Positions 12,168 through 39,231 of a DNA stretch of 39,231 bases are shown piece by piece. Source of the stretch: a virus (lineage: Duplodnaviria; Caudoviricetes). A program made the translations under genes and the position numbers. Position 1 is the first letter of the stretch. Every line of letters begins with the position of its first letter. Where the stretch lies: IMG/VR virus record IMGVR_UViG_3300038379_000304, positions 1 to 39,231 of that record; one strand, written 5' to 3'. The notes under the pieces are model-generated. The model saw nothing but the letters and a program-made list of their open reading frames with translations. It was not told where the DNA came from and ran no database searches.

Positions 12168-13748
12168 ATGTCCACCCCGGCTCTCGCCGCCCCCCAGGGC
12201 GGCGCCGTGACGTCCCTCCCGGTGCGCGCGATCGCGCCGGGGGGGACCAACCCCCGCAAGCGGTTCGACCCCGACGCCATGCGCGAGCTCGTCGAGAGCG
12301 TGAAGGCGCACGGCGTGCTGCAGCCGGTGCTCGTGCGGCCCTGGAACTCGCCGCAGGTCCTCGATCGGGTCCGCCGCCTGCCCAAGGGCGCGCTCACCGC
12401 GGACGACGGCAGCTTCTACGAGCTGATCGCCGGCGAGCGGCGCTGGCGGGCGGCGCAGGATGCCGGCCTCGACGAGATCCCGGCGCTCGTCCGTGCGCTC
12501 GACGACGACCAGGTCCTCGAGATCCAGGTGGTCGAGAACCTCCAGCGCCAGGACCTGCACCCACTCGAGGAGTGCGAGGGCTACATGCGGCTGCGGCGGG
12601 CCGGGTACGACGTCGCCCGCATCGCCGAGCGCGTCGGTCGGTCCGTGGCGTACATCTACGACCGCCTGCGCCTGGCCAACCTCACCTCGCACGCTCGCCG
12701 TCTCTTCGAGGAGGGAAAGATCCAGGCCGGCCACGCCGTGCTGCTCGCGCGGCTCACGGCCGACCAGCAGACCCTGGCCATCGAGACGGAGTTCGCGCTC
12801 TTCAGCCCGGAGCGGACGTTGTTCGACCCGCGCGGGGCCGACGAGATCGAGGCCGCCGACAGGGCCGACCCCATGAGGGGCATGAAGGCCAGCACGGTGC
12901 GCGAGCTGCAGGCGTGGATCGACGAGCACTGCAAGCTCGACGTCGACAAGCAGGCCGACCTCGAGCAGCTCTTCCCGGAGGTGGCCGCGGCGGTCGACCA
13001 GGCCGCCGCCGCCGGCGCCGAGCACGACGAGCCGAGGAAGGTGGTGCAGGTCACCTACGAGAGCTACGTCCGGCCAACCGCCCGCGACGGCTCGAAGATC
13101 TACGGGCCCCGCAGCTGGAAGGAGGCAACGAAGCCCTGTCCGCACCTGGCCACGGGCGTGGTGGTGGTCGGGCCCGGCCGCGGCGCGGCGCTCACCGTCT
13201 GCCTCGAGAAGAAGAAGTGCCGGGTCCACTGGGGCGCGGAGATCCGGGCCCACGAGAAGGCCGTGAAGGCCGGCGAGGCCGCGGCCGCCGCCGGCGGGAA
13301 GACCGGCGCCGCCCGGATCGCCGACCGCGAGAAGGCCGCGCGGGAGCAGTACGAGCGGGAACGGCGCGAGCGCGACGAGAAGGACCGGCAGTGGAGGGCC
13401 GCCTCTGCTGACATCCTCGCGGCGCTCGCCGAGGGAGTGAAGAAGGCCGCGGTGAAGGAGCTCGGCGACATCGTCGTCGACGCCGTCTGCGCGAACGGTG
13501 GACTGAGCCGCAGCAAGGCGGCGGAGCGCCTGGGCGTACCCCGCGGCGAAGCGGTCGAGACGCTGCAGCACGCCGCGCTCATCGCGCTTGCCGAGGCCGC
13601 CGCGGAGTGGAACGCCTGGAAGACGTTCCCGCCGATCGCGCGGGCCCTCGGCGTGGACCTCAAGCCGGTCCTCGCGAAGCACGCGCCGAAGACGGAGCCC
13701 GAGGCGCCGCCGACGAAGCCAGCGAGGAAGGGGAAGGGCGGGCGCTGA
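12168..13748 (+). CDS. parB: ParB/RepB/Spo0J-family protein with long C-terminal extension (526 aa)
   Basis: NPRKRFD, GVLQPVLVRP, LIAGERRWRAA, ENLQRQDLHPLEE, followed by an HTH. Confidence 0.9.
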   Translation: MSTPALAAPQGGAVTSLPVRAIAPGGTNPRKRFDPDAMRELVESVKAHGVLQPVLVRPWNSPQVLDRVRRLPKGALTADDGSFYELIAGERRWRAAQDAGLDEIPALVRALDDDQVLEIQVVENLQRQDLHPLEECEGYMRLRRAGYDVARIAERVGRSVAYIYDRLRLANLTSHARRLFEEGKIQAGHAVLLARLTADQQTLAIETEFALFSPERTLFDPRGADEIEAADRADPMRGMKASTVRELQAWIDEHCKLDVDKQADLEQLFPEVAAAVDQAAAAGAEHDEPRKVVQVTYESYVRPTARDGSKIYGPRSWKEATKPCPHLATGVVVVGPGRGAALTVCLEKKKCRVHWGAEIRAHEKAVKAGEAAAAAGGKTGAARIADREKAAREQYERERRERDEKDRQWRAASADILAALAEGVKKAAVKELGDIVVDAVCANGGLSRSKAAERLGVPRGEAVETLQHAALIALAEAAAEWNAWKTFPPIARALGVDLKPVLAKHAPKTEPEAPPTKPARKGKGGR

Positions 13749-14767
13749 TGGCGAAGCGCGGCACCCTGACCCACCGGCGCACCCGTAGGCTCGCCGCGAT
13801 CCTGCGGGTGGCGCCGCCGTACGCCCTCGGCCTGATGGAGGCGCTCTGGCACGTGACCGCGGAGCACGCCCCGGCCGGGGACGTCGGCCGCATGTCGGAC
13901 CAGGACCTCGCCGACGAGCTGTACTGGGACGGCGACGCCGCGGAGCTCGTGGGGGCGTACGTCAAGGCCGGCGTCCTCGAGCGGCACCAGTCGCACCGCC
14001 TGGTCGTGCACGGGTGGTCGGAGCACGCCGACAACGCCGTCCGCCACAAGCTGAAGCGCGCCGGGAGGGTGTTCTGGGATGGCGAGCCGCCGTTTCGCCG
14101 TCGCCAGTCGGAGCCAGACGACGGCGACGCTCCGACCGAGCATGATCAGACGGCGACTGATCATGATAAGTCGCCGCCGGTCGCCGACACACCACGATCA
14201 GACGAAATCGAGCCTGCCAGTAACCAGCGACCAGCGACCAGTGCCAGCGACCAGTGCCAGCGACCAGCCACCAGCGACCAGCGACCACGGACCCCCCCTG
14301 GCCCCCCCGCTGTCGCGGGTGGGCGCGCCGGCGGCGGGCCGGCCAGGGTTGGCGACACGCTCCCGGGTGGGTCGGTCGTGCTCGAGCTCGACGAACGCGG
14401 GCCGGTGGTCGTCGCGAAACCGCCGCGATCGGCGCGCGCGGAGGCGACCGCGGCGGCCGAGCGCGTCGTGGTGTTCGCGACGCGGCGGCTCGGCTACCGG
14501 TTCGACCGGACCCAACGCCGGGCACTCGTCCAACGGCTCCTCTACGGCGAGACCGAGGCCCAGCTGCTGGCGCCGTACGAGCGGCAGCTCGCCGCGCTCG
14601 AGGCCGCTGACAGAGAACCCGAGGACGGCCCCCCGGACCCGGGAACCGTCGACGAGGAGGCCGAGGCCCTGCGGCTCTTGGCGCCGCCCGCCGCACCGCC
14701 GCCGGAGCCGCGGTTCATGCCGAGCTCCACGGTCGCGATCCACAACACCACCCGAGGTGCAGCGTGA
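13748..14767 (+). CDS. Phage replication initiator / replisome organiser-like protein (339 aa)
   Basis: N-terminal H..TRRLA..L......LGL..LW...G......DLA...W.GD...LV......G.L.......HGWSEH motif. Central low-complexity repeat region, as in lambda O-type genes. Confidence 0.7.
   Translation: MAKRGTLTHRRTRRLAAILRVAPPYALGLMEALWHVTAEHAPAGDVGRMSDQDLADELYWDGDAAELVGAYVKAGVLERHQSHRLVVHGWSEHADNAVRHKLKRAGRVFWDGEPPFRRRQSEPDDGDAPTEHDQTATDHDKSPPVADTPRSDEIEPASNQRPATSASDQCQRPATSDQRPRTPPGPPAVAGGRAGGGPARVGDTLPGGSVVLELDERGPVVVAKPPRSARAEATAAAERVVVFATRRLGYRFDRTQRRALVQRLLYGETEAQLLAPYERQLAALEAADREPEDGPPDPGTVDEEAEALRLLAPPAAPPPEPRFMPSSTVAIHNTTRGAA
14217..14291 (+). repeat. Tandem CCAGCGA/CCAGTG repeats (11 units) inside the replication gene; candidate origin region
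   Basis: Units read CCAGTAA, CCAGCGA x2, CCAGTG, CCAGCGA, CCAGTG, CCAGCGA, CCAGCCA, CCAGCGA x2, CCACGGA. Just upstream are two copies of GATCAGACG and a GGCGACT/AGTCGCC inverted repeat. Confidence 0.75.
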
Positions 14768-15093
14768 GGCTCTCCGACATTCGCGGCTGCGACGGCTGCC
14801 ACGGCCTGATCTTCCAGCCGACCGCCCGCTCGTTCTTCGTGATCCGGGTCTCCACGGCGATCGTCACGCCCGCCGGCCTCGAGGTGGCGGCCGCGGCCGC
14901 CCGCAACGGGGTGCCGCTGCAGCGGCTTCACGACACCCCGGCTTCGATCGCTGTCCTCGGCGACGAGCGGCCCGAGATGATGCACGAGATCCACCTCTGC
15001 CGGAGCTGCCTCGGCACGAAGCCCCTGGCCGGGATCGTGGCCGAGCGGATGGCCGCGCACGAGGCCCGGGTCGCGCGGGGAATGGCGTCGTGA
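14764..15093 (+). CDS. Zinc-binding hypothetical protein (109 aa)
   Basis: CDGC ... CRSC pairs; GTGA overlap. Confidence 0.65.
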   Translation: MRLSDIRGCDGCHGLIFQPTARSFFVIRVSTAIVTPAGLEVAAAAARNGVPLQRLHDTPASIAVLGDERPEMMHEIHLCRSCLGTKPLAGIVAERMAAHEARVARGMAS

Positions 15094-15425
15094 GCGCGCT
15101 CGAGGACCTGCTCGAGCACCAGATCCGCGCGCACGGGCTCCCAACCGCCGAGCGGGAGTACCGCTTCCACGACACCCGCCGGTGGCGGTTCGACTTCGCC
15201 TGGCCGGACATGCATGTCGCGGCCGAGGTCGACGGCGGCACGTGGGCGCGCGGCCGGCACGTCACCGGGCGCGGGTTCGAGAGCGACGCCGAGAAGACGA
15301 ACGCGGCCGTCGCCGCGGGCTGGCGCGTGTACCGCTTCACCTCGACCCACGTCCGGACCGGCTACGCCGTCGCGCAGCTCCGGACCGAGCTCGAGCGGGC
15401 CGCCTGGTCGAGAGTTGAGCCGTGA
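15090..15425 (+). CDS. DUF559/Vsr-like endonuclease (111 aa)
   Basis: EYRFH..RRWRFDFAWP...AAEVDGG.W..GRH......D.EK.N.A...GWRVYRFT. Confidence 0.85.
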   Translation: MSALEDLLEHQIRAHGLPTAEREYRFHDTRRWRFDFAWPDMHVAAEVDGGTWARGRHVTGRGFESDAEKTNAAVAAGWRVYRFTSTHVRTGYAVAQLRTELERAAWSRVEP

Positions 15426-15646
15426 GCGGGTGCGACGAGCCCGGGTGTCCGCTCGACGAGCGCCGGCTCTACGTCGTGGTGGACGGGCGGGGCTACTGCT
15501 CGACGCACTGGAAGGCGGCCGGGCGGCCGTGGCCGCGGGCGGTGGCCAGCATGGAGCGCGTGCACGAGGCCGAGCTGCAGACGCGCGCGCGCATGACGGC
15601 TCGGGGCGGGACCGACCGGCACATGGTGCGGAACGGGAGGACGTGA
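15422..15646 (+). CDS. Small zinc-finger-like protein (74 aa)
   Basis: CDEPGC ... YCSTH; GTGA overlap; stops 2 nt before array 1. Confidence 0.6.
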   Translation: MSGCDEPGCPLDERRLYVVVDGRGYCSTHWKAAGRPWPRAVASMERVHEAELQTRARMTARGGTDRHMVRNGRT

Positions 15647-15648
15647 CG

Positions 15649-15795
15649 GGCGAGGCAGGCAAGGCAAGGGCTGGCGAGGCCCGGCGTGGCCGCGCAAGGG
15701 TTGGCGAGGCAGGCGTGGGCTGGCTTGGCGTGGCCCGGCCTGGCGAGGCATGGCACGGCCCGGCGAGGCCGGGCTCGGCGAGGCAAGGCAGGCGA
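15649..15795 (+). repeat. GGC-NN pentamer array 1 (putative non-coding guide RNA array, 2 units)
   Basis: Parsed as GGCGA GGCA | 10 pentamers (15658-15707) | GGCA | 15 pentamers (15712-15786) | GGCA GGCGA. Intergenic and directly upstream of the RAMP gene. Confidence 0.9.
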
Positions 15796-15836
15796 GGACG
15801 TGACGGAGACGCGGAGAGGCTAAAAAAGGGGATCAC

Positions 15837-16514
15837 ATGGCATTCAAGAAGGCTGAAAAGATCGCAATCACGGCGCCCAAGATGCAGGAGGTGAAGTTCC
15901 GCATCATCGGGACGGCGCCGCTGGTGCAGAACAAGTTCTCACAGCGCACCCTGGAGGGCATGGCGGCCGACCAGGCGGCGGGGTCGGCCGCGAAGAAGAA
16001 GTCGAAGCGCGACGCGAAGGACTTCGACGCCTGCGTCCGCGAGGCGACCCACGTCTCGGAGAAGGGCTGGGCCGGAATCCCGGCCTCGGCGTTCCGGGCC
16101 GGGCTCATCTCGACGTGCCGGCTGCTCGGCTTCCCGATGACACTCGCGAAGCTCTCCGTGTTCGTCGTCGCCGACGGCTACGAGCGCGACCGCTTCGGCG
16201 TGCAGCCGCTCGTCAAGATCACGAAGGGCAAGCCCGAGCGGACGGACTTCGCCGTCCGCAACGCAACCGGCGTCGCCGACATCCGCCCGCGGCCAATGTG
16301 GGCCGAGGGCTGGGAGGCGATGGTGACGATCCGCTTCGACGCGGATCAGTTCACGATCGACGACGTCACGAACCTGCTCGCGCGGATGGGGATGCAGGTC
16401 GGCATCGGCGCCGGCCGCCCCGACTCGAAGGACAGCGCGGGGATGGGCTGGGGCACCTTCCGGATCGCGGGCCACGAGGACGCGAAGAAGTCCACCAAGA
16501 AGGGGGAGGAGTAG
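15837..16514 (+). CDS. Standalone Cas7/Csm3-like RAMP protein (225 aa), putative guide-RNA-binding filament subunit (Vipr-like)
   Basis: RAMP hallmarks in order: N-terminal strand KFRIIGTAPL, GIPASAFRAGL (cf. IPGSSLKG of Csm3/Cas7), an R-P-R-P element, and a C-terminal glycine-rich loop GIGAGRP..SAGMGWGTF. No other cas genes are present in the genome. Confidence 0.8.
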   Translation: MAFKKAEKIAITAPKMQEVKFRIIGTAPLVQNKFSQRTLEGMAADQAAGSAAKKKSKRDAKDFDACVREATHVSEKGWAGIPASAFRAGLISTCRLLGFPMTLAKLSVFVVADGYERDRFGVQPLVKITKGKPERTDFAVRNATGVADIRPRPMWAEGWEAMVTIRFDADQFTIDDVTNLLARMGMQVGIGAGRPDSKDSAGMGWGTFRIAGHEDAKKSTKKGEE

Positions 16515-16517
16515 ACA

Positions 16518-16961
16518 ATGGCGCACACCTCGAAGACGCAGCAGAAGATCGCGGAGCTGCAGGCGCTCATGGACAAGCGGGGCCACCTCGCCCCGAGGCG
16601 CGTCGTCATGTGGGCGCGCGCCCACAAGCGCAGCGCGCTGCACTCGCACTTCAACTGGGACGTGAAGAAAGCCGCGATGGAGCACTGGCTCTGGCAGGCG
16701 CGCGAGCTGATCGTCTCGGTGGAGGTGACCTACGAGGACGGCAAGCGCCGGCCGATCTACGTGTCCCCGATCGCGACGAGGACGCTCGGGTACCGCCGCC
16801 TCGTGGACGTGATGAGCGACGAGGACACGAAGGCGCAGTACCTCGCGCAGGCGCTCGAGGAGCTGCGGCGCGTCTGCGACAAGTACATCGACCTGACGGA
16901 GCTCGCGGGCGTGCGCGCCGAGGTGGCGCTCATCCGCGTCGGGAAGAAGGCGGCGGCGTAG
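16518..16961 (+). CDS. Conserved phage protein co-encoded with the RAMP gene (147 aa), putative accessory factor
   Basis: Starts 3 nt after the RAMP stop and has its own GGAGGAG RBS. Motif G.L.P..VV..AR....S.LH..F.WD...AA..H.L.QAR.LI. Its stop codon runs into array 2. Confidence 0.75.
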   Translation: MAHTSKTQQKIAELQALMDKRGHLAPRRVVMWARAHKRSALHSHFNWDVKKAAMEHWLWQARELIVSVEVTYEDGKRRPIYVSPIATRTLGYRRLVDVMSDEDTKAQYLAQALEELRRVCDKYIDLTELAGVRAEVALIRVGKKAAA

Positions 16962-17254
16962 GCGAGGCAGGCGAGGCGAGGCACGGCCGGGCGAGGCACG
17001 GCTTGGCTCGGCATGGCCGGGCGAGGCGAGGCAGGCGAGGCAGTGGATGGCGCGGCCGGGAAAGGCCAAGCAAGGCCTGGCGAGGCAGGCCGGGCGTGGC
17101 TCGGCATGGCCGGGCGGGGCTTGGCAGGGCCAGGCGAGGCAGGCGTGGCAAGGGCAGGCTCGGAACGGCCTGTTGAGGACGGGCGTGGCGAGGCAGGCCG
17201 TGCGCGGCGGGGCTTGGCCGGGCATGGCGGGGCGGTGCTTCGCGTGCCGCCATG
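16961..17254 (+). repeat. GGC-NN pentamer array 2 (putative guide RNA array: 4 complete units plus a terminal unit with hairpin)
   Basis: GGCGAGGCAGGC occurs at 16961, 17025, 17079, 17133 and 17187 (spacings 64, 54, 54, 54). Units contain 12, 10, 10 and 10 pentamers. The array ends in the inverted repeat CATGGCGG (17223-17230) / CCGCCATG (17247-17254). Confidence 0.92.
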
Positions 17255-17299
17255 ACGTTCCGGTGGGGATCAAGGTCGAACGTCAGGGGGAGGGGAAGC

Positions 17300-17530
17300 G
17301 TGGCTGAAGACGAGATCGTGTTCTGGACGTGCGACGACGCGCCGGAAGGATTGGGTTGCACCGAGGAGGACGAGGCGATAGAGGAGTGGCTCGACCGCTT
17401 CTGCGACCCACCGAAGTGGATCGACGGCAAGTGGAGCCCGACGGTGATGCTGCAGAAGCGCTCCAGCGGCCGCGGCGTGGCGCAGCTGCGCGTCGAGCTC
17501 GAGCGCGCGGCCTGGGGCAGGCTGCCGTGA
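17300..17530 (+). CDS. Hypothetical, possibly chimeric protein (76 aa)
   Basis: GGAGGGG RBS with GTG start. The C-terminal VAQLRVELERAAW nearly duplicates the end of the DUF559 gene. Confidence 0.5.
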   Translation: MAEDEIVFWTCDDAPEGLGCTEEDEAIEEWLDRFCDPPKWIDGKWSPTVMLQKRSSGRGVAQLRVELERAAWGRLP

Positions 17531-17724
17531 TGAACGCGCGGGACAGGGTCCGGCTGAAGGAAGCCATCCGCGAGCTCGAGGCCGACGCCGAGGCGGCCCG
17601 GCCGAACATGGAGCTCGTGCTGACGGTGCGGTTCGACCGCAACGGGCACATCTGCTCGCGACAGACGCACCTGACGGTCTCTCGCTTCCCGCTTGACGCC
17701 CGCGACACCGAGAGCGCACCATAG
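17530..17724 (+). CDS. Hypothetical protein (64 aa)
   Basis: TGATG coupling; last ORF before the lysis block. Confidence 0.55.
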   Translation: MNARDRVRLKEAIRELEADAEAARPNMELVLTVRFDRNGHICSRQTHLTVSRFPLDARDTESAP

Positions 17725-17784
17725 CCGCGGCCGTACCTCCTGCACTGGCTGGCGACTCACGGCCCAGCCTGGGAGGCGGGATCG

Positions 17785-17852
17785 CCGAGCAAAGGCCCCC
17801 GATCTTCACCGCCGGAAGTCCCGGCGGGTGGGTCGGAGGGCCTTTCGCTTGG
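17785..17852 (+). promoter_or_regulatory. Long RNA hairpin upstream of or overlapping the endolysin start
   Basis: CCGAGC-AAAGGCCC (17785-17798) pairs with GGGCCTTT-C-GCTTGG (17838-17852), with an inner GCCGG/CCGGC stem. Confidence 0.55.
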
Positions 17853-18448
17853 TAGACGGTGCAGCCGGAGCCGGACACACGACCGCCGCGAGCTGGCGAG
17901 AGCTCATCCGCCAGGCCGTAGACGTCCTCTGGCCGGGCCTCCCCGACGGCGCCGCGTGGATCGAGGCGCAGGTCCAGGCCGAGAGCGCGGGTGATCCGCG
18001 GGCGGTGAGCCCCGCCGGCGCGCAGGGCCTCCTGCAGCTGATGCCCGGCACCGCGGCCGAGGTCGGGGTGGCGAACCCCTTCGACCCAGCCGAGAACATC
18101 CGCGGCGGCGTGACGTACCTCCGCCGCCAGTACGACGCCCTTCGCCAGGTGCCCGAGCACGGCGACCGCCTCTGCTGGGCGTTCGCCTCGTACAACGCCG
18201 GACGTGCCTACTCGGCTCGCGCACTCGCCCTTGCGGAGATGGACAAGGCCCTCCCCGGGGCTGACCGCTGGTGGCGCTGGTCGCTCTCCTGGCGCTACCT
18301 GCTGCACCGCGACGCCGGCATCCCCGTGACGCCGGCGCCCGGGCAGCGCAGACGCTGGGCCGACCACCATCAGGTAGTCGCGTACGTGGCCCGCATCCAG
18401 CGGCGCGCGCGGACGCTCGGCGCCGTGGTCGAGACCTGGCCTCAATGA
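17849..18448 (+). CDS. Lytic transglycosylase (SLT-domain) endolysin; start uncertain
   Basis: QAESAGDPRAVSPAGAQGLLQLMPGTA, FDPAENIRGGVTYL and ASYNAG motifs. Confidence 0.9.
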   Translation: MVDGAAGAGHTTAASWRELIRQAVDVLWPGLPDGAAWIEAQVQAESAGDPRAVSPAGAQGLLQLMPGTAAEVGVANPFDPAENIRGGVTYLRRQYDALRQVPEHGDRLCWAFASYNAGRAYSARALALAEMDKALPGADRWWRWSLSWRYLLHRDAGIPVTPAPGQRRRWADHHQVVAYVARIQRRARTLGAVVETWPQ

Positions 18449-23416: not shown

Positions 23417-24640
23417 ATGGCCTTCCTCAGGACGCGCACCCGCACGCCGACCGGCGGGCCGACGTATCAGCAGAGTGTCTCCGGCACCGTGACGTCGTCC
23501 GGGGCGCTCGTGCGCCAGGCGCGCCGGGTCCTGGCCGGCACGGCCTCGACGGCCGGCGCCCTGACGAAGCGGCTCGCCCGCGCCCTCACCGGCGCCGCGG
23601 CGAGCTCGGGGAGCCTCACCCGCCGCACGGCCCGGAGCCTGACGGCCGCCGTGGCCACGTCGGGAGCGCTCGTCAGCTCGAAGCTCGCCTTGCGGGCCCT
23701 CACGGGCGCGATGTCGTCGGCCGGGGCGCTCGTGAAGCAGCCCTCCCGGGCCCTGGCCGGCTCCATGGCGAGCTCCGGGGCCCTCGTGAAGAGCCTCTCC
23801 CGGGCCCTGGCCGGCGCCGTGTCGAGCTCGGGCACCCTGCTCGCGATCCGCACGGTCCTGAAGGACCTGACCGGTGCGCTCGCCACGGCCGGGAGCCTGA
23901 CGCGCCACACGGCCCGCACGCTCGCCGGCTCCGTGGCCCCCGCGGGCGCCCTCGTGAAGAGCCTCTCCCGGGCCCTGGCCGGCTCCATGGCCTCGGCCGG
24001 CGCCCTGCTCGCGGTGCGCGCCGTCCTGAAGGACCTGGGCACGGCCTCGGTCGCCCTGGCCGGCTCGCTCGTGCGCCAGGCCAGGAAGGTGCCCGGGGGC
24101 ACGGTCGCCGCCGCCGGGGCCCTCCTGCGGCAGACCCGCCGGGCCCTGGTGGGCTCCGTGGCGAGCTCGGGCTCCATCGCCGCGATCGAGGCCTACTTCC
24201 GCGCCCTCACGGGCTCGCTGGCCACCTCGGGCGCCCTGACGCGCCGGGCCGGGAAGGCGGCGATCGGCTCCCTCGCCACGGCCGGGAGCCTCACCCGCGC
24301 CACCTGGAAGGCCCTGGCCGGCACGCTCGCGGCGGCTGGCGCCCTCGTCACCGCCCGGCTCTTCCTGCGCGCCCTGGCGGGCTCGGTGGGCTTCGCCGGG
24401 TCGCTGGTGACGTCCCTGCTGCAGGACATCGCCCGGTGGGTGGGGCTCCTCGTCGACCGCGTGCGCCGGCCCTCGAGCTCGACCATCCGGTCGGTCGCTC
24501 TCTCGTCGTCCTCCCCGGGCTTCCCGGCTCTGTCTCGACCGCTCGCGTCCGTGGCGTCGGTGCGCTTCTCGGCGCCCGGCTCCGTGTCCCTGGCCTCTCC
24601 GCACGCTCAGGACGTGCGGTTCGTTCTCTACGGAGGGTAG
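23417..24640 (+). CDS. Repeat fibre-like protein (407 aa) with 17 repeats in an 18-18-20 rhythm
   Basis: Consensus R-A-L-[AT]-G-x-[VLM]-A-[ST]-[SA]-G-[AS]-L-[VT]-[RK]. CCCTCGTGAAGAGCCTCTCCCGGGCCCTGGCCGGC is duplicated at the DNA level. Confidence 0.8.
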   Translation: MAFLRTRTRTPTGGPTYQQSVSGTVTSSGALVRQARRVLAGTASTAGALTKRLARALTGAAASSGSLTRRTARSLTAAVATSGALVSSKLALRALTGAMSSAGALVKQPSRALAGSMASSGALVKSLSRALAGAVSSSGTLLAIRTVLKDLTGALATAGSLTRHTARTLAGSVAPAGALVKSLSRALAGSMASAGALLAVRAVLKDLGTASVALAGSLVRQARKVPGGTVAAAGALLRQTRRALVGSVASSGSIAAIEAYFRALTGSLATSGALTRRAGKAAIGSLATAGSLTRATWKALAGTLAAAGALVTARLFLRALAGSVGFAGSLVTSLLQDIARWVGLLVDRVRRPSSSTIRSVALSSSSPGFPALSRPLASVASVRFSAPGSVSLASPHAQDVRFVLYGG

Positions 24641-37511: not shown

Positions 37512-39231
37512 TCATCAAGATCCCGATCGAGGTGTCCTCGACAGGCTCCGGCTTGAAGTCGACGGTCTCCGGCCTCCAGGAAGTCGAGAAGGCGGCGAAG
37601 CGGGCCGAGGGCGCCGCGGCCGGGCTGGGCCGTGGAATCGAGGGCGGCACGAAGCGCATGGGCGCGTTCGCCGACTCGGTCGGCCGCACGTCGACGACGC
37701 TGGCCCGTTCGGCGGACGCCTTCGGGCTGCCGACCCAGGCGCTGCGGACGCTCGACGACGTGATGGACGTGGCCGAGCTCGGCCTCAACAACCTCTCGAA
37801 GGCGGGCGCCGGGTTCAACGCTGCAAGCATCGGCGTGGCCGGCGCTGGCTTGGCGATTGGGACGGCGATCGGGTCGTGGCTAAACACCTTTCCGGCCGTC
37901 CAAAAGGCGGCGGACAGCCTCTTCCACAGCATGTTCCGTTTCGTGGGGCTCGCGGGCCAGGTGGACAAGGCAGCGACGACGGGGCTGAAGGAGTTCTCCG
38001 CGTCGATGGGGGCGAAGCACGCCGAGGCCCTGCAGAAGCAGGTCGCGGCGATGCGCGAGCAGGGCAAGACCGGGAAGGACATCGCGAAGTTCTACGGGAG
38101 CAACCTCACCGAGGAGATGAAGACGCGGCTCGGCCTCACCGAGAAGGCCCTCAAGGCCGAGGAGGCGATCCTCAAGGCGAACCAGAAGCAGAAGGAAGAG
38201 CTCGCCGCAGTCAATGCGCTCTTCCGCAACGAGAAGAGCCTGACGGACCTCTACAAGGCGGGGACGTCCGTCTCGGCGAAGGACTTCAAGGCCATGCTGC
38301 CGGGGGTCGCGACGACCTTCACGCAGGGTACCCAGGTCGCGGCGCAGGGGCCGGACCTGTTCAAGTCGATCATGGGGGGCGGGATCGCGACGAGCCTGAA
38401 CCTCTCGTGGAGCAAGGAGCAGGAGCTCGGGAGGCAGGCGCGGGCCGCGGCCGACGAGGCGGCGGCGAAGAAGACGCAGGACCTCGTGAACATCTTCGGC
38501 ACGCTGTCCTCGCAGCTCACGAACCTCTCGCAGACGGTCGGGGGCTTCGCCGGGAAGCTGCTCAACGTGATGGCGTCGCTGTCCTCGGGCGCCGGCGGGA
38601 TCTTCTCGGGCGTCGAGGGCTGGAAGAAGTCCACCGGCGGCGGGGCGCTTGGCTTCCTCGGGAAGCTCTCGAGCGGGCTGGGGATCGTCGGCTCCGCGAT
38701 CGGCGCCGTCGGGGGCCTGGTCGGCGGGATCAAGAGCCTGTTCGGGGGCAAGTCGAAGGAGGAGAAGGCGGCCGAGGCGGCGGCGAAGCGCCAGGCCGAG
38801 GAGGACCGCAAGGCCGCGGCCGAGGCGGCGCGGCAGGCGAAGCTCGACGGCCTCAAGAGCGCCCAGGCGGCGGCCGAGAGCCTGATGGACCGGATGGGCA
38901 AGGGCGGGATGTCCGAGGGCCTCACGGCGGCGCTCGGGACCCTGGTCGGGAAGGTGCAGGAGGCGCTCCTCAAGAGCGGGCTCGGGTACATGGCGATGCC
39001 GGGCCTGCGCGACTCCCAGGCGTTCATGGGGGCGCAGGGGGCCGCGGGGGACGTCGCACAGCTCCTCGGAGGCATGCGGGCCGGGGGAGCCCTCGACTCG
39101 GGCCTCCTGGCGGCCGCAGGGGCCTCGGCGACCGAGCTGCAGGCCCAGGCGGTGGCGGCCGCGGAGGCCGCCGGCCTGGCGCCGGCCGAAGCCACCAAGG
39201 CCGGCTTCGGGGCGATCGCCCCGCTCCTGCG
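37508..39231 (+). CDS. Tape measure protein, N-terminal part (798 aa in total after joining to 1-776)
   Basis: GTG after AAGGAGG. Ala/Gly/Lys-rich helical frame, open to the window end. Missing from the ORF track because it has no stop inside the window. Confidence 0.88.
   Translation, partial: MIIKIPIEVSSTGSGLKSTVSGLQEVEKAAKRAEGAAAGLGRGIEGGTKRMGAFADSVGRTSTTLARSADAFGLPTQALRTLDDVMDVAELGLNNLSKAGAGFNAASIGVAGAGLAIGTAIGSWLNTFPAVQKAADSLFHSMFRFVGLAGQVDKAATTGLKEFSASMGAKHAEALQKQVAAMREQGKTGKDIAKFYGSNLTEEMKTRLGLTEKALKAEEAILKANQKQKEELAAVNALFRNEKSLTDLYKAGTSVSAKDFKAMLPGVATTFTQGTQVAAQGPDLFKSIMGGGIATSLNLSWSKEQELGRQARAAADEAAAKKTQDLVNIFGTLSSQLTNLSQTVGGFAGKLLNVMASLSSGAGGIFSGVEGWKKSTGGGALGFLGKLSSGLGIVGSAIGAVGGLVGGIKSLFGGKSKEEKAAEAAAKRQAEEDRKAAAEAARQAKLDGLKSAQAAAESLMDRMGKGGMSEGLTAALGTLVGKVQEALLKSGLGYMAMPGLRDSQAFMGAQGAAGDVAQLLGGMRAGGALDSGLLAAAGASATELQAQAVAAAEAAGLAPAEATKAGFGAIAPLL
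39129..39231. repeat. Terminal overlap, copy of 1-103
   Basis: Identical to the first 103 bases. Confidence 0.95.

Follow-up and report, generated by a model that had tools for sequence, protein, structure and literature searches.

VIPR was described in 2026 as a CRISPR-related gene silencer and consists, according to the available text of 10.64898/2026.04.26.720920, of a vipr gene and an accessory gene; its guide RNAs comprise 9-16 GGY/NN repeats and interrogate double-stranded DNA in steps of two bases with one base skipped, usually the wobble base. The same paper lists 'staggered arrays with overlapping vrRNAs', and the legend to its fig. S18 describes guides from positions that overlap by 1 nt, the end of one being the start of the next, and draws the units as individually processed vrRNAs; the sRNA-seq reported there confirmed the ribozyme-interspersed and single-guide layouts, not the staggered one. 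The junction sequence goes unnamed in the text and legends of that paper ('GGCA' does not occur in the supplement text), while its figures or data may show it. In the text available for each, 'GGCA' is also absent from 10.64898/2026.10.15.759431, and 'staggered' from 10.64898/2026.04.26.720927, 10.64898/2026.10.15.759431 and 10.64898/2026.10.21.760802. Among the papers listed from 2025 on, only 10.64898/2026.04.26.720920 deals with staggered VIPR.

The window, by which we mean the whole stretch of 39,231 nt analysed here, makes up the entire assembly and is a circular, probably complete phage genome of about 39.1 kb, because it carries an identical 103-bp terminal repeat (1-103 and 39129-39231) together with terminase, portal, ParB and transglycosylase (SLT) genes. 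The locus of interest holds, in this order, an upstream array, the genes for P0001 (225 aa) and P0002 (147 aa), and a downstream array (Table 1). No cas family was found among 36 ORFs searched in Pfam or among 12 searched in NCBIfam, the window has no CRISPR-type repeat family, and no nuclease was identified in the VIPR locus. Two further repeats were seen elsewhere in the genome. A 7-nt tandem repeat, ACCAGCG (14215-14287, 9.6 copies), lies within a replication-initiator-like ORF (13607-14767, phrog_9474) and possibly represents origin iterons or a linker, and a 54-nt tandem period at 23693-24006 is coding, giving an 18-residue repeat in the product of ORF 23417-24640, and has no relation to the guide arrays although the period is the same.

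P0001 belongs to phrog_4652 and has no family in Pfam or NCBIfam; a sequence search of the PDB gave no match, and 5407 of 5737 candidates were retained as homologues. Its structure model (pLDDT 86.8) resembles Csm3 (Foldseek E 4.4e-6) and Cmr4 (VIA-align Z 11.3, rmsd 3.6, 152 aligned) in fold libraries that end on 2026-04-08, that is, earlier than the VIPR structures, and its fold relatives among the RAMPs include the RNases Csm3, Cmr4 and Cas6. When the P0001 family profile was run against the SUSP1 genome, the single match was YP_009199429.1 (E 0.001 per genome), the protein named as the Vipr of SUSP1 in the text of 10.64898/2026.10.15.759431. An hhalign comparison of the P0001 family with SUSP1 Vipr gave an alignment that is confined to the C-terminal 52 columns (probability 78.5, E 1.7e-5). 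SUSP1 R138, a G2 contact according to the available part of 10.64898/2026.04.26.720927, aligns with P0001 R152, and SUSP1 R179 aligns with R194; both R152 and R194 are invariant in the family alignment. SUSP1 D177 and W178 align with A192 and G193, so that recognition of G1 and G2 would differ from that in SUSP1, and the G-loop of P0001 has an 8-residue insertion relative to SUSP1 Vipr. The first G has a lowered conservation in this clade (1.28 versus 1.50 bits), which a weaker recognition of the first G would fit. Overall, the model and the alignments indicate that P0001 is a Vipr homologue with the RAMP fold.

The downstream gene, P0002, is a putative vap by position. It corresponds to phrog_15946, and a homologue is present in 110 of 129 vipr loci (E<=0.01). 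No similarity to SUSP1 vap1 was detected, and neither Pfam nor NCBIfam has a family for it. Its model is of low confidence (pLDDT 67, pTM 0.38) and found no match in the PDB at E<=0.001, the best row having an E of 0.46; look-alikes in the Atlas are viral clusters without names. Many of the PDB rows are winged-helix proteins, and we set this reading aside as unusable, given the low-confidence model and the best E of 0.46.

Table 1. Features of the predicted VIPR locus in the window
Feature	Position	Strand	Remarks
Left copy, exact 13-bp direct repeat	15637..15649	+	holds stop codon of ORF 15422-15646
Upstream staggered vrRNA array	15649..15793	+	junctions (GGCA) at 15654, 15708, 15787
Unit U1	15658-15707	+	10 pentamers, upstream array
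Unit U2	15712-15786	+	15 pentamers, upstream array
Right copy, exact 13-bp direct repeat	15794..15806	+	brackets upstream array
vipr gene, P0001	15837..16514	+	225 aa; single-RRM RAMP with thumb and G-loop; predicted filament subunit
Accessory gene, P0002	16518..16961	+	147 aa; putative vap, by position
Downstream staggered vrRNA array	16961..17245	+	junctions at 16966, 17030, 17084, 17138, 17192
Unit D1	16970-17029	+	12 pentamers; low complexity
Unit D2	17034-17083	+	10 pentamers
Unit D3	17088-17137	+	10 pentamers
Unit D4	17142-17191	+	10 pentamers
Unit D5	17196-17245	+	10 pentamers, more degenerate, without closing GGCA

Scanning all 39,231 nt for the junction motif GGC[AG]AGGCAGGC gave eight copies on the + strand and none on the - strand, against 0.068 copies expected per strand under a 3rd-order Markov model of the rest of the window. 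The copies start at 15649, 15703, 15782 (a GGCAA variant), 16961, 17025, 17079, 17133 and 17187, and their spacings, 54 and 79 in the upstream array and 64, 54, 54 and 54 in the downstream one, all equal 5n+4 (n = 10, 15, 12, 10, 10, 10). These positions and spacings are as the first-pass annotation had claimed them. All eight junction steps are 4-mers, and the two arrays divide into seven units of 10, 15, 12, 10, 10, 10 and 10 pentamers; the annotation had ended the downstream array at 17200, which proved too early, as its last unit of 10 pentamers continues to 17245. Its observation of an indel-free register across degenerate triplets was borne out, with zero indels inside the seven units. 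The scaffold here is GGC, which starts 63 of the 77 pentamers; the other 14 start with GGG (4), GGA (3), CGC (2), TGC (2), TGG (1), AGC (1) or GTT (1), and GGT starts none of the 77. What marks a junction is the -1 slip, in which GG comes immediately after GGCA. Neither GGCA nor GGCGAGGCA alone marks a junction, because 13 of the 77 in-register pentamers begin with GGCA and of the 12 copies of GGCGAGGCA that the window contains, five lie away from junctions (15742, 15777, 16975, 16990 and 17034). Inside unit D4 an off-register GGCAGGC (17153-17159) occurs with no net shift, a natural control for sequence versus phase as the junction mark.

The first base of the downstream array is at the same time the final base of the vap stop codon. 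A Logan contig from one DNA run, labelled as a freshwater metagenome, covers 15696-17600 with 0 differing letters, an agreement that is not independent, as this run is possibly the source sample of the window; the runs listed as holding the window comprise this kind of material only, one DNA run and no RNA run. Rfam has no family match in the window, neither sequence inspection nor Rfam gave a tail, hairpin or ribozyme between the units of the window, and no sigma-70-like promoter was found in 15000-18000. Folding of the array RNA relative to shuffles was stronger in places (z -4.15, -3.28 and -2.32) and was +1.21 at the upstream end; we set RNA structure aside as a feature of the arrays, the values being a by-product of GGC/GCC content.

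To compare the window with its relatives, we collected homologous loci from viral, metagenome and genome collections and parsed their arrays by tiling, with equal penalties for 4- and 6-nt steps. Arrays lie beside the RAMP gene in 97 of 120 homologous loci. The pooled set of 123 distinct arrays counts identical arrays once and is separate from the two arrays of the window and the three of L107, which has a different scaffold. Of 699 register breaks in this set, 635 are 4-mers, in related loci whose counts are not independent events and with a parser that is blind to a +1 followed by a -1 shift. Among the 635 4-mers, 525 are NGCA and 406 GGCA, and the fourth base is A in 548, compared with 2146 of 6378 pentamers. 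Consistent with units bounded by the slip, 323 of 404 spacings from one NGCA to the next are 4 mod 5, and 59 of the 123 arrays end in NGCAG[GC]. Clean units (n=323) most often have 9 pentamers (63 units), followed by 10 (58), 8 (46), 11 (43) and 12 (23), so that 233 of the 323 fall between 8 and 12. The pentamer before the junction is more variable (n=519: GGCAA 77, GGCAT 44, GGCAC 43, GGCGA 34), and A is the first base of the last dinucleotide before the junction in 291 of the 519 cases. At the NN positions every one of the 16 dinucleotides occurs, while GG is fixed. Read across the clade, the conserved element is thus indicated to be NGCA-GG plus a softer, locus-specific preceding pentamer.

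These counts bear on several claims made from the window alone. The homologue survey had been set as a test of whether register shifts are random, and they are not, although in the 11 closest loci 6-mers account for 12 breaks out of 82. The estimate of about 10 subunits for the modal guide was a fair one, the mode being 9 with 10 close behind. The idea that the slip forms a second level of grammar bounding the units holds clade-wide, with 525 NGCA among the 699 breaks, but its 9-mer form does not generalise, and a reading of GGCGAGGCA as the equivalent of a CRISPR repeat is not supported, as GGCGA precedes 34 of 519 junctions and five of the 12 copies in the window are not at junctions. The argument that slippage would not maintain such a register is weak, since related arrays differ by single pentamers inside units and 12 of 82 breaks in the closest loci are 6-mers.

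Several loci in the survey have features of their own. In L092 (3170-4321), L047 and L102, recurrent 9-nt steps (for example GGCAATCAC) stand immediately before junctions; the pooled set holds 26 such steps, each with a register shift of -1, as with a 4-mer. L107 (3270-5077), from a Gemmatales MAG, has very long staggered arrays with a GTC core and CGTC 4-mers next to a 46%-identical Vipr; the slip is kept there despite the changed repeat. Seven close relatives (L001, L002, L020, L023, L024, L027 and L028) carry TTGAC and then the palindrome GACCA(T/A)TGGTC about 70 nt upstream of vipr, and the palindrome is followed in these seven loci by a conserved hairpin leader ending in GGCGAAA. The palindrome is a possible operator, perhaps for the accessory protein; this promoter-like leader is absent upstream of vipr in the window. 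A hammerhead was considered for the leader of the close relatives and was rejected, with no Rfam support.

Staggered GGCA arrays are also found in cultured actinophages, namely cluster F mycobacteriophages (L126-L128, L131, L132, L139, L143 and L144) and Gordonia phages (L129 and L130), where they adjoin a distant vipr (about 29% identity between its product and P0001) and a vap and have the same junction as the window. Parts of these arrays are annotated in GenBank as hypothetical CDS. The eight mycobacteriophage arrays have their last segment in common and differ by whole units at GGCA: the array of Donkeykong exceeds that of Pippy by two units, and those of James, DRBy19 and Saal exceed that of ByChance by one. 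Single pentamers have also been gained or lost inside units among these arrays, and therefore slippage acts on them, and keeps the register. In Pippy, Zizzle and Donkeykong, a two-pentamer stub repeats the end of the neighbouring unit. As for the window, its upstream array resembles a block of DNA that was inserted. It is bracketed by an exact 13-bp direct repeat, the longest flank repeat among 118 arrays and the only 13-bp flank among them (1/118), and in the 12 closest loci the region upstream of vipr is free of arrays. It is conceivable, if on the doubtful side, that the NGCA-GG slip is both a processing mark and the insertion site of new whole-unit guides; if so, the 13-bp repeat and the duplicated end-of-unit stubs would be footprints of guide acquisition. 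The available text of the VIPR papers (10.64898/2026.04.26.720920 and related) gives no mechanism of guide acquisition.

We compared 23 actinophage units with nine stretches from eight phage genomes (814 kb, both strands) under the VIPR code. One unit, in this related clade (Vipr about 29% identical to P0001), has a predicted natural DNA target: unit 2 of Quico agrees in 19 of 20 bases with the tape-measure gene that Squirty and Wachhund carry if one nucleotide is skipped, as opposed to 13, 17 and 15 of 20 with skips of 0, 2 and 3, and none of 1000 order-shuffles exceeded 17. The skips fall on the third positions of codons, and at two of these the Squirty and Wachhund targets differ from each other. 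Quico itself is absent from the 17 records that hold the target stretch. On the 3' side the unit ends in a mismatched base, and the match does not continue past the junction. The 5' edge is not clean, because the three dinucleotides before the 5' junction continue to match at five of six target bases when the 4-mer is ignored. The other 22 of the 23 units were at the level of shuffles or within one match of it.

For the guides of the window itself, exact gapped 18-base scans of viral_contigs with five of the seven units (U1, U2, D2, D3 and D4) gave no credible target. D4 had three matches, D2 one, and U1, D3 and U2 none; we attribute the D4 and D2 matches to chance, as they fall in contigs of 41-53% GC and none reaches the tenth dinucleotide, and at the three distinct sites that were read in frame (L072, L074 and L147) the skip is off the wobble base. 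Against the window's own genome, no unit matched above 80%. Across 257 units compared with the homologous loci there was no excess at skip 1 (35 versus 30-32 at >=80%), and the single skip-1 row at >=90% is circular, its locus having been retrieved with that guide. The actinophage guides gave 3 + 2 matches in viral_contigs. One of these, in L151, extends by one extra dinucleotide (20/22); with its skip out of wobble phase and a contig of 42% GC, it was rejected as chance.

The arrays are real, well beyond chance, and in all likelihood functional. We think it probable that they are VIPR guide cassettes in which each GGCA-bounded unit is one guide RNA, cut from a longer transcript at the slip or near it. 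If the window works like the SUSP1 and P. fulva systems that have been published, each pentamer would be covered by one Vipr protomer, with the GGY hidden in the protein, and the NN pairs would be read against double-stranded DNA with every third target base skipped, resulting in transcriptional silencing. Vipr may polymerise along the transcript in 5-nt steps until a 4-nt step breaks the phase, at which point a filament of about 10-11 protomers (about 30 bp read) would end and the next would start, leaving a bare or strained link that might be cleaved, either by a host RNase or by the RAMP. The pseudoknot tail of type II guides could then be replaced by the constrained 3' end, which consists of NGCA and the A-biased last dinucleotide, and the guides, seven in all, would act against rival phages or satellites that share the host, by silencing their genes. 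The array RNA of the same VIPR system may instead stay uncut, with the slip only separating filaments on a long multi-guide RNA. This would agree with the window having no tail, hairpin or ribozyme between units, no Rfam match and no nuclease identified in the locus, and with the Quico target, which matches 5/6 across the junction; in addition, the off-register junction sequence at 17153 argues against a cut site read purely from sequence. We nevertheless consider an uncut RNA rather unlikely, in that the legend in 10.64898/2026.04.26.720920 draws individually processed vrRNAs, the constraint on the junction (NGCA in 525/635, an A-start dinucleotide in 291/519) exceeds what a phase slip needs, and the fold relatives of P0001 include the RNases Csm3, Cmr4 and Cas6.

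Whole units gained and lost at GGCA, the stubs that repeat a neighbour's end in Pippy, Zizzle and Donkeykong, and an upstream array that is bracketed by an exact 13-bp repeat and has no counterpart in the 12 closest loci would also be expected if the slip were mainly a DNA-level scar or target of guide insertion or swap, without a role in RNA. Recombination between GGC repeats would, however, neither favour a -1 shift nor fix units at 8-12 pentamers, and a 13-bp flanking repeat occurs in only 1 of 118 arrays, which makes a purely DNA-level role improbable; a scar of this kind can be compatible with guide cassettes cut at the slip, both holding together. Neutral satellite DNA from replication slippage would account for the single-pentamer gains and losses inside units and for the low complexity of some units (D1). 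It would not account for the use of 16/16 dinucleotides at NN while GG is fixed, and it is contradicted by the linkage, in 97 of 120 loci, to the same RAMP gene and by the target match, in which one unit corresponds to a genuine gene of other phages and outscores 1000 of 1000 shuffles, so that we hold this origin to be very improbable. It is harder still to credit a miniature CRISPR array, with GGCGAGGCA as a 9-nt repeat and contiguous 45-nt spacers, to which the Cas7-like fold of the adjoining protein and the near-regular recurrence of GGCGAGGCA in the window might point: the supposed spacers are built of GGC/NN repeats, the 9-mer lacks conservation among relatives (34/519), and the window has no cas family (36 ORFs in Pfam, 12 in NCBIfam) and no CRISPR-type repeat.

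Both the system and the staggered layout have already been published, as the available text of 10.64898/2026.04.26.720920 attests, and the window is a further member. What is added here is the definition of the junction as NGCA-GG and not a 9-mer, a distribution of unit lengths over 323 units, the turnover of whole units at the junction and one natural guide-target pair in cultured phages (Quico versus Squirty and Wachhund). These results make the maturation and sizing of tail-less guides, and the gain of VIPR guides, testable in laboratory strains, and if the slip is an insertion site, the cultured cluster F mycobacteriophages are ready as a test system. Guides of 50 nt set apart by only 4 nt would also offer a very compact means of multiplexing programmable DNA silencing.

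Class 1 CRISPR effectors (Csm3, Cmr4 and Cas7) share with the window the RAMP fold and several guides per array. These effectors place one subunit per fixed-length RNA segment. Unlike class 1 CRISPR, the window has no detected repeat-spacer array of identical direct repeats and unique contiguous spacers and no other cas genes, and its guides would be read as dinucleotides with a skipped base instead of by contiguous pairing. With the type II VIPR systems (SUSP1 and the P. fulva prophage) it has in common a homologous RAMP, the vipr-vap order, guides both upstream and downstream, and the pentamer code. The conserved structured 3' tail of about 40 nt of type II guides is missing from the window, whose units abut without a tail, whereas SUSP1, run through the same parser as a control, has four separate guide runs, each with a non-repeat tail, and no 4-mer. 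The two also differ in the scaffold, which is GGC in the window and includes no GGT, in the 8-residue insertion in the G-loop, in A and G in place of D177 and W178, and in an accessory protein dissimilar to vap1. VIPR systems are mostly viral or proviral in location. With a stand-alone RAMP in a minimal, viral locus flanked by GGY/NN pentamers, the locus is, judging from its sequence and predicted structures, a VIPR system. Its unit lengths of 10-15 pentamers show no difference in kind from the 9-16 repeats given in the available text of 10.64898/2026.04.26.720920, which, unlike the present survey, has no account of unit lengths in its text or legends; its figures or data may include this clade. 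Like the staggered VIPR arrays of the legend to fig. S18 in that paper, the window has a phage-encoded vipr with one accessory gene, GGY/NN repeats and neighbouring guides that are shifted by one nucleotide and follow each other without an intervening tail or ribozyme. The 54-nt period equals 11 pentamers overlapped by one base, and the grammar of the window is therefore that of the published staggered layout.
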